Assembly: GCF_003334785.1 (NCBI RefSeq)
Contig: NZ_QOWV01000010.1
From: Escherichia coli
GTDB lineage: Bacteria > Pseudomonadota > Gammaproteobacteria > Enterobacterales > Enterobacteriaceae
Length of the DNA: 64,000 nucleotides
Strand: one strand, 5' to 3'
Part shown: piece by piece, positions 42,601 through 43,479 of the stretch
Layout of the letters: each line of letters begins with the position of its first letter
Numbering within the stretch: position 1 is the stretch's first letter
Position numbers and translations under genes: made by a program
Notes under the pieces: model-generated
What the model was told of the DNA's origin: nothing
The model's input: the letters and a program-made list of their open reading frames with translations, nothing else
Databases searched by the model: none

Positions 42601-43479
42601 TTACTGACTCGCCGCAGCCAACTCTTCTTCTGACAGCCCGGTAAAGCGCATGATGTCTGCAAGAGGAACTCCGGATTCAAGCATTATTTTGGCTATATGC
42701 AGGGCTTTGGATTGTTCCCCCTCCTGCCGCAATCTTTCCGCAATAGTCATTAAACTCTCCTTGTGTTTCGGTGAACGTTCGGCAACGCCGTCGATAAAAT
42801 CGTTAAAACGTACAGCGTCGCCAGTTTGCAGTATGTAATTAAACAGCCCTTTGATTTGTCTGTCATTAGCGTATCCACTACTTAATAAGCAGGCCATTTG
42901 CTCTACCAGCCCCATCAGGTCGCGTTGACGAATATGTTTTTGAATTAACTCCAGCAGCGCCATACGTCGGTGCTGCATGATTTCATCATCAGGCATGACG
43001 GTGACATCAATCAGCGGAAATGCGGAGGCATAAAGCTGCCTTGCCAGTTTGGGATCGGCGAAACAATCCAGCCAACACAGCGAATAGGGATAGGGGCTTT
43101 CAATACCGTGGTAAAACAACAATGGCACCACCATCGGCAACGTTTTGTATCCAGCATCAAGGTGATTTTGCATTGCGGCAATAGCGTAACGCATCATGCG
43201 AAATGCGATCAGTTTGTTTGAGGTGCTTTGATGTTCAATCAGACAATAGATGTATCCTGGTCCTTGTTCCGTTTTCACCGACCACAGCACATCGGAATAG
43301 CTTTCACGCAGATCGTCATCAATAAAGCTGCTCGACTCCAGCTTGAGGGTTTTCATATCACAAAGCGCGTGAATGGGTGCCGGTAAATGAAACGCAAGAA
43401 AATCACGAGCCGTGTCCGGTTGGCGTAAAAAGAGTTTGAACAGCGCATCGTGTGGGGTGGAACTCTGCTTTTTGCTCAT
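42601..43479 (-). CDS. rpnA: Rpn-family recombination-promoting nuclease (transposase-like PD-(D/E)XK, 292 aa)
   Basis: 292-aa ORF matching remembered YhgA/RpnA; synteny. Confidence 0.85.

Follow-up and report, generated by a model that had tools for sequence, protein, structure and literature searches.

The rpnA (yhgA) gene between bioH and feoC of Escherichia coli, a probable one-gene toxin-antitoxin module with a nested antitoxin

The gene located between bioH and feoC in a 64,000-nt stretch of Escherichia coli DNA (contig NZ_QOWV01000010.1 of assembly GCF_003334785.1, hereafter the window) raises the question of whether it represents a transposase that was retained and tamed by its host, as was proposed in a preliminary description made from the sequence, or a functional module of another kind. 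We consider it probable (about 85%) that what lies here is rpnA of E. coli K-12, a toxin-antitoxin module in which one gene yields two proteins.

Positions 42601 to 43479 of the window contain, on the minus strand, a single ATG open reading frame of 292 codons plus a stop, which corresponds to rpnA (yhgA). The protein matches the NCBIfam RpnA equivalog model NF007361 ("recombination-promoting nuclease RpnA") over residues 1-292 of 292 with 694.8 bits (cut-off 583), and scores 160.9 against the Rpn subfamily model TIGR01784 (cut-off 52.1), while its only Pfam match is PF04754 (Transposase_31, YhgA-like; residues 8-209, E = 2e-91). A 2.2-kb stretch that includes rpnA displays 100% DNA identity with K-12-type chromosomes, for which the RefSeq gene order is gntX, bioH, rpnA, feoC and feoB, and the encoded protein is without differences to RpnA (YhgA) of E. 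coli K-12 MG1655 (WP_000039062.1; PDB 7TH0), whose gene has the same neighbours. The presence of RyhB at positions 5658-5722 of the window is consistent with this same K-12 region. The published experiments concern exactly this rpnA sequence. E. coli rpnA is a known and well-studied gene; as it is fully characterised in K-12, its recognition here is real but ordinary, no discovery follows from it, and the locus serves as a calibration case. The gene and its immediate surroundings are composed of the following features:

42601-43479, minus strand: full-length rpnA (yhgA) CDS encoding RpnA_L, the toxic DNA endonuclease (ORF, NF007361, PF04754, and RefSeq annotation of an identical K-12-type genome)
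42853-43458, minus strand: PF04754 domain (Transposase_31 / YhgA-like), residues 8-209 (Pfam search)
43485-43489, minus strand: Shine-Dalgarno sequence AAGGA of full-length rpnA (from the sequence)
41802-42572, plus strand: bioH (ORF listing)
42573-42600, no strand: convergent spacer of 28 nt between the bioH and rpnA stops, without overlap of the genes
43682-43927, minus strand: feoC (ORF listing; annotated form 43682-43918)
about 43625-43660, minus strand: feoC intrinsic terminator, an 11-bp G+C-rich stem followed by a U-run (-28.6 kcal/mol, z = -4.0; not equalled by any of 200 shuffles)

The preliminary description had named the gene RpnA/YhgA, a Transposase_31-like protein, and had placed it between an overlap-free convergent junction with bioH and the feoC terminator, and in all of this it was right. 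The terminator, a strong hairpin with its U-run, lies within the 202-nt feoC-rpnA spacer and sets the feoABC operon apart from rpnA. No terminator-like structure was found at the 3' end of rpnA (fold of -5.9 kcal/mol, z = +0.9), and the Rfam search gave no match within or near the gene. Up to 20 kb on either side, the neighbouring genes are of the housekeeping type, with neither a partner transposase nor a defence island among them. The G+C content of rpnA is 47.6%, versus 54-56% in the flanking genes.

The fold of the long protein was addressed by an AlphaFold2 model with a pLDDT of 90.2, in which the core elements succeed each other as helices 9-18 and 21-31, strands 40-47, 64-70 and 76-84, helix 91-108 and strand 116-123. 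D63 marks the beginning of strand 2, and strand 3 closes with E82-H83-Q84. This helix-strand-strand-strand-helix-strand order, together with the placement of D63 and E82-x-Q84, provides the PD-(D/E)XK fold that the preliminary description had attributed to the protein. The confident model, combined with distant similarity, points to a canonical PD-(D/E)XK layout in which Gln would replace Lys. Its core topology and the placement of its acidic residues are as in the nuclease domains of AddA/RecB, Cas4, NucS, N.BspD6I, and TnsA of Tn7; a Foldseek search of PDB structures found nothing significant for the nuclease domain, 7TH0 being the only match. All four residues of the catalytic signature (D11, D63 and E82-x-Q84) are at their expected positions in the window:

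43108-43455, minus strand: predicted PD-(D/E)XK core, residues about 9-124 (AlphaFold2 model)
43447-43449, minus strand: codon D11, required for every phenotype observed in vivo (D in 56 of 56 diverse homologues; D11A dead, PMC5350276)
43291-43293, minus strand: codon D63, the catalytic Asp where strand 2 begins (D in 55 of 56 homologues; D63A dead, PMC5350276)
43228-43236, minus strand: codons E82-H83-Q84, the E-x-Q version that the family has of the (D/E)xK motif (E in 53 and Q in 45 of 56 homologues; E82A and Q84K dead, PMC5350276)

Kingston et al. (2017, PMC5350276) described RpnA as a Mg2+-dependent, Ca2+-stimulated and essentially non-specific DNA endonuclease, whose cleavage products carry 3'-OH ends, and found that each of the substitutions D11A, D63A, E82A and Q84K abolished recombination, toxicity and SOS induction.

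A second gene is contained in frame within the first. PDB entry 7TH0 ("RpnA-S"), which was retrieved in a search of solved structures, is a 49-residue chain identical to RpnA residues 244-292, and the C-terminus of RpnA in the AlphaFold model superposes on it at 0.6 A. This nested gene, rpnA_S, escapes an ordinary reading of open reading frames, is not marked in the RefSeq annotation, and was overlooked in the preliminary description, although it is the main published feature of the locus (Zhong et al. 2023, PMC10400941). Its features are:

42601-42750, minus strand: rpnA_S, nested in-frame gene for a 49-aa antitoxin starting at Met244 (ATG at 42748-42750; 7TH0, published mutants, and conservation)
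42757-42762, minus strand: Shine-Dalgarno sequence AAGGAG of rpnA_S, 6 nt before the internal ATG and coinciding with codons K240-E241 (from the sequence; mutated as ribosome-binding site in PMC10400941)
42838-42866, minus strand: candidate sigma-70 promoter of the short rpnA_S transcript, ATGACA, a 17-nt spacer, and TTTAAT (found by eye)
42697-42720, minus strand: site of the hypervariable four-residue repeats of the family, residues 254-261, EGEQSKAL-H (length variation among alleles and homologues)

Of 56 homologues, 50 retain Met244, down to approximately 30% identity, with purine-rich codons ahead of it; this conservation is in line with the published view of the nested arrangement as family-wide. 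In PMC10400941 an internal transcription start is assigned to all rpn genes, and the hexamers at 42838-42866, which precede the internal start codon by approximately 85 nt, may represent the corresponding promoter. A sigma-70 consensus scan gave no promoter and did not list these hexamers, the second of which fails the rule of that scan. Among the alleles compared, neither the -10 hexamer nor the spacer varies; the -35 hexamer has one substitution (ATGGCA) in L002, one of the two deletion alleles described below (L002 and L003), and the candidate promoter is located outside both deletions.

The function of the short protein has been established for this gene itself. When K240R, E241D and M244L were combined on the chromosome, RpnA_S was abolished; when the internal start was removed (RpnA_L*), a growth defect was unmasked; RpnA_S blocked DNA cleavage by RpnA_L* in vitro; and RpnA_S, not RpnB_S, blocked the SOS induction caused by overexpression of RpnA_LS (all PMC10400941). 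RpnA_L and RpnA_S form an L2S2 complex of 74 kDa by SEC-MALS, which dissociates at pH 9-10, and RpnA_L at native levels went undetected on immunoblots under the conditions tested (PMC10400941). The nuclease activity, the catalytic residues, the internal start, the complex and the inhibition have thus each been demonstrated by published experiments on this exact sequence. In this mechanism, RpnA_L (292 aa) cuts DNA with little sequence specificity by means of D11, D63, E82 and Q84 of its N-terminal core, and RpnA_S (49 aa) is translated in frame from Met244 behind AAGGAG, probably on a transcript from an internal promoter. RpnA_S, a three-helix dimer, binds the matching C-terminal domain of RpnA_L, and the resulting L2S2 complex blocks DNA cleavage, toxicity and SOS induction; RpnA_L that is freed from it, as can be achieved in vitro at alkaline pH, is able to cut DNA.

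Like the antitoxins of classical type II systems, RpnA_S is a small, helical, HTH-like protein that binds its toxin directly (PMC10400941); unlike them, it is not encoded by a separate adjacent gene, but is the toxin's own C-terminal domain acting as a dominant negative (PMC10400984). Other chromosomal Rpn proteins, such as RpnB (approximately 70% identity with RpnA in the N-terminal domain), share with RpnA the PF04754 nuclease domain, the internal start and the RpnS antitoxin logic (PMC10400941), while their genes are found at different chromosomal sites, some with an extra downstream rpnS copy. The C-terminal modules differ among Rpn proteins, so that each RpnS blocks only its own RpnL (PMC10400941). 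The plasmid-encoded RpnP2 of E. coli ECOR13 belongs to the same family and has the same gene-within-gene layout of L and S. Its long form is far more toxic than RpnA_L, which is the least toxic member tested, and protection against T-even phages has been demonstrated for this member alone (PMC10400941); RpnA in the window is chromosomal.

The normal role of RpnA may be antiphage defence of the abortive-infection type, with phage protection having been measured for the plasmid relative RpnP2 only (PMC10400941). In the family, hypervariable four-residue units in the first helix of RpnS, whose insertion point is H261 (PMC10400941), are regarded when repeated as the signature of an arms race, and length differs exactly at this site between RpnA and the alternative E. 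coli allele (49 vs 54 aa), the proteins of Citrobacter and Salmonella, and distant homologues. Against a defence role of RpnA count its housekeeping setting, the undetected native RpnA_L (PMC10400941), and the K-12 allele, which is of the minimal form: a repeat search of the window found no tandem repeat at residues 254-261. PADLOC v2.0.0 contained no model matching RpnA, a result that is uninformative as its 2023 library may predate Rpn.

The descent of the gene was examined separately. The preliminary description viewed rpnA as a domesticated transposase, retained by the host for recombination, and correctly presented it as a lone 292-aa gene rather than as an active mobile element. An inverted repeat of 9 nt is the best that the junction zones share (the shuffle mean score is 7.4, and 12% of the shuffles reach 9), and the longest direct repeat at the junctions is 6 nt, versus a shuffle mean of 6.5; in this repeat search and shuffle test, no terminal inverted repeats or target-site duplications above chance were therefore found at the rpnA junctions. 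Across 5,425 genomes, rpnA was found in a median of 1 and a maximum of 2 places per genome, and among the matches listed always between bioH and feoC. No known transposase catalytic domain (DDE, HUH, or serine/tyrosine recombinase) was found in RpnA, for which Pfam gives PF04754 alone. The hypothesis that RpnA is an autonomous insertion sequence was rejected on these grounds: no IS ends, no duplications, a single copy, and no transposase domain.

Nomenclature speaks for transposase ancestry, namely the Pfam name Transposase_31 and the NCBIfam model for the closest paralogue, RpnB, which is called "ISNCY family transposase". Both are legacy names, and this locus illustrates how a family name can lead to an evolutionary claim that goes beyond the evidence. 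We know of no PF04754 member that is a demonstrated transposase, and to our knowledge no ancestral mobile form of the RpnA family has been identified anywhere. None of the known autonomous transposases has a PD-(D/E)XK fold, rpn genes were reported to have no defined ends or duplications, rpn arrays were attributed to tandem duplication, and a transposase function of Rpn was considered "highly unlikely" (Zhong et al. 2023, PMC10400941), with which the commentary by Koonin concurs (PMC10400984). The patchy distribution of the family could also be cited in favour of mobility, as Rpn family members are present on 4,679 plasmid records out of 72,556. Conjugation is predicted for 3,011 of these 4,679, and only 10 records of a phage collection carry the family, which we interpret as spread mostly by hitch-hiking.

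Within E. coli the gene is subject to loss. The locus was found in 5,425 of 5,426 complete genomes, and the segment encoding D63-E82-Q84 in 4,664 of the 5,426; the nuclease core is deleted in approximately 761 of the 5,425 genomes with the locus (approximately 14%), a count that takes all core-lacking alleles together. At least two deletion alleles exist, of which two were examined: one has lost 254 nt (window positions 43188-43441, e.g. in Nissle 1917), and the other 437 nt (42966-43402, e.g. in SK1144). These deletions frameshift RpnA_L to 22 or 54 residues, and both alleles retain the 49-aa rpnA_S ORF intact with one conservative substitution.

The history of the site was followed by a BioH search of genome contigs, which gave 74 loci. 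The gntX-bioH-feoCBA order is conserved across the Enterobacteriaceae; an rpn gene occupies the slot between bioH and feoC only in Escherichia, Citrobacter and Salmonella. In Klebsiella, Kluyvera, Leclercia, Raoultella, Kosakonia and Yersinia, the slot carries a gene for an 89-aa DUF1471 (YhcN/BhsA-like) protein, and it is empty in Enterobacter cloacae and some others. The slot spacers of distant genera are unalignable, and none of the 74 loci offered an empty site that would delimit clean ends or duplications. Decay is also apparent closer to E. coli: E. albertii possesses a heavily deleted rpnA remnant; in E. whittamii an IS200/IS605 TnpB element is inserted at about codon 215 of rpnA; and in Escherichia sp. 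MOD1-EC7003, the only Escherichia genome without rpnA among the 74 loci, the gene, both spacers and the last bioH codons are gone, the bioH and feoC stops overlap, and the loss is a secondary deletion.

The low G+C content of rpnA, and the occurrence of a DUF1471 gene or of nothing in the slot of other Enterobacteriaceae, fit horizontal acquisition, and we infer that rpnA entered the bioH-feoC slot by horizontal transfer and not by self-transposition. The slot data as a whole fit such an acquisition followed by repeated decay, and since repeated loss in Escherichia is not the pattern of a stably domesticated gene, they do not fit stable domestication. The overall reading of the preliminary description thus stands with regard to the gene's name and fold and to its not being an IS; its terms "mobile-element-derived" and "domesticated" are unsupported, and together with the single copy, the chance-level repeats and the published arguments against transposase function, the recurrent decay makes descent from a transposase retained for recombination highly improbable.

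The slot genes of Citrobacter and Salmonella show 64-68% identity with the N-terminal domain of RpnA, versus 70% for the paralogue RpnB, while BioH, FeoC and FeoB of the same genera show 79-93% identity with their E. coli counterparts. In a bootstrapped neighbour-joining tree, the slot genes grouped with RpnA in 0.5% of the replicates, and RpnA and RpnB were sisters in 54%. The rpn-feoC spacer is nevertheless homologous across the three genera (z = 8-13), with a like strand and position of the gene, which counts against independent insertion; the slot genes may go back to one old insertion and have diverged fast, or another rpn lineage may have replaced the original occupant.

A similar pattern was described for rpnC at panC-panD and read as site-specific re-acquisition (Kingston et al., PMC5350276), and this parallel, together with the divergent rpn genes in the bioH-feoC slot of three genera, lends some credit to the view of Kingston and Raleigh that RpnA mainly aids gene acquisition: the 3'-OH ends left by nicking and cutting at a low level (PMC5350276) would prime template switching and so help foreign DNA to become integrated independently of RecA, with RpnA_S as no more than a safety brake. 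Zhong et al. also leave room for "housekeeping roles" (PMC10400941). An observation in favour of this view, which also speaks for the transposase interpretation and which the preliminary description cited correctly, is that overexpression of RpnA, B, C or D yielded more RecA-independent recombinants in a conjugal assay (PMC5350276). However, the effects were obtained only on overexpression and tracked toxicity and SOS induction, and the available portion of that paper reports that other DNA-damaging treatments mimic the effect and contains no recombination phenotype of an rpnA deletion (PMC5350276); native-level RpnA_L is, moreover, undetectable (PMC10400941). As the increase in recombination is seen on overexpression and tracks DNA damage, it is most plausibly a by-product of DNA breakage, and a main role of RpnA in gene acquisition appears improbable, if less so than a transposase origin.

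Another explanation holds that rpnA is a selfish or neutral addiction-type cassette, without benefit to the host, hard to lose and now decaying. The core-less alleles carried by approximately 14% of E. coli agree with it, because in the two frameshifting alleles examined the toxin was lost before the antitoxin, which is the order of loss expected of an addiction module; the E. albertii remnant, the total deletion in MOD1-EC7003 and the TnpB insertion in E. whittamii, as well as a setting that is not a defence island, point in the same direction. It has, however, to be reconciled with a core that is kept in 4,664 of 5,426 genomes, with C-terminal module diversification that suggests selection, and with the measurable phage protection given by RpnP2 (PMC10400941). 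Furthermore, between the K-12 allele and a 297-aa allele pN/pS is 0.03 over codons 1-250, which indicates purifying selection on the nuclease domains of intact alleles. We therefore regard a cassette without host benefit as unlikely, though somewhat less so than a main role in acquisition, and retain the toxin-antitoxin module, with a putative role in defence, as the preferred reading of the locus. The population data could steer experiments on a defence role of chromosomal RpnA.

The toxin-deleted alleles, the two C-terminal modules and the decay in relatives are modest additions to what is known of rpnA. A bolder proposal would be that bioH-feoC is a recurrently remodelled rpn site whose antitoxin-only alleles are functional. 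We hold this to be improbable; if true, orphan RpnA_S would represent immunity against incoming RpnA-type nucleases, or a regulator, and the swaps between the K-12 type and the 297-aa type of C-terminal module would represent exchange with either the nuclease itself or phage pressure as the driving force. The 297-aa allele, present in 896 genomes (approximately 16%), differs from the K-12 allele in its C-terminal module (…EGFQKGIRTNALNIAKTML…), and is followed by 206 bp with a 35-aa S-like ORF that is cut short by a premature stop, after which a K-12-like 3' end is joined on; judged from its sequence, this 206-bp segment looks like a displaced rpnS module.

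The nuclease core of rpnA is absent from approximately 761 of 5,426 complete Escherichia coli genomes, as estimated by comparing the count of the locus with that of the core segment, and the alleles examined that lack this core are explained by two frameshifting deletions, of 254 nt and 437 nt. The 49-aa rpnA_S ORF is whole in both deletion alleles, and its candidate internal promoter lies beyond the limits of both deletions, with one substitution in the -35 element of E. coli C 237-04. A 297-aa RpnA with a distinct C-terminal module is encoded in 896 genomes.

Variant rpnA alleles of E. 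coli
Window equivalent 43188-43441: 254-nt deletion, E. coli C 237-04 (locus L002), allele shared with Nissle 1917 (H50)
Window equivalent 42966-43402: 437-nt deletion, E. coli strain 23753 (locus L003), allele shared with SK1144 (H58)
L001 1074-1292 and 1293-2186: region of the 297-aa RpnA allele, example from E. coli 366_BP0076

In E. coli 366_BP0076, the 297-aa allele is followed on its 3' side by 206 extra bp, which contain a 35-aa S-like ORF (MVLMTDAEREYLISYLIGYLLGRRLEALDIAKRML) that has a premature stop and is fused to a K-12-like rpnA 3' end. This extra stretch resembles an rpnS module that was displaced or duplicated within the rpnA locus.

Elsewhere in the genus, rpnA is interrupted, deleted or reduced. 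In Escherichia whittamii (L019, 1005-2135), a gene encoding a 376-aa TnpB of the IS200/IS605 type lies inside rpnA at about codon 215, parting the nuclease portion from the C-terminal module; the protein scored 358 bits against the TnpB subfamily model NF040570 (above the cut-off of 100) and 386.9 bits against NF038281 (under the curated cut-off of 425). In Escherichia sp. MOD1-EC7003 (L005, 5740-5800), rpnA and both spacers are wholly deleted, a loss that takes the feoC terminator with it and makes the stop codons of bioH and feoC overlap. E. albertii (L006, 5770-6170) retains a remnant of rpnA with multiple deletions.

Outside Escherichia, the interval between bioH and feoC can hold an rpn gene or, in Klebsiella, Kluyvera, Leclercia, Raoultella, Kosakonia, Yersinia and others, a gene for a DUF1471-type (YhcN/BhsA/YahO) protein of 89 aa with a signal peptide, for which every NCBIfam match fell under the curated cut-off.

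Occupants of the bioH-feoC interval
L031, L025, L015, L034, L036, L049 and others: 89-aa protein, plus strand
L008-L012 and L050 (Citrobacter), L022 (Salmonella diarizonae): rpn genes

The Citrobacter and S. diarizonae products, of 308-316 aa, carry clear, variable runs made of 4-residue units (GLQE/GLQT/GLQQ) past the internal Met, and are less similar to RpnA than is its E. coli paralogue RpnB. Two metagenome proteins, P0010 and P0011, resemble chimeras, beginning with about 112 or 69 residues of RpnA and continuing as an RpnB-like or Citrobacter-like remainder; they could be true recombinants between paralogues or assembly artefacts.

Two features of the window were also recorded. The hairpin at the bioH-rpnA junction has no U-run and was not significant against shuffled sequences (z = -0.7), and the RyhB small RNA was the sole Rfam match at gathering score when the whole window was scanned.

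42587-42613, plus strand: imperfect hairpin GGCGAGACAG...CUGACUCGCC, across the rpnA stop codon
5658-5722, plus strand: RyhB small RNA (Rfam RF00057, 83.1 bits)
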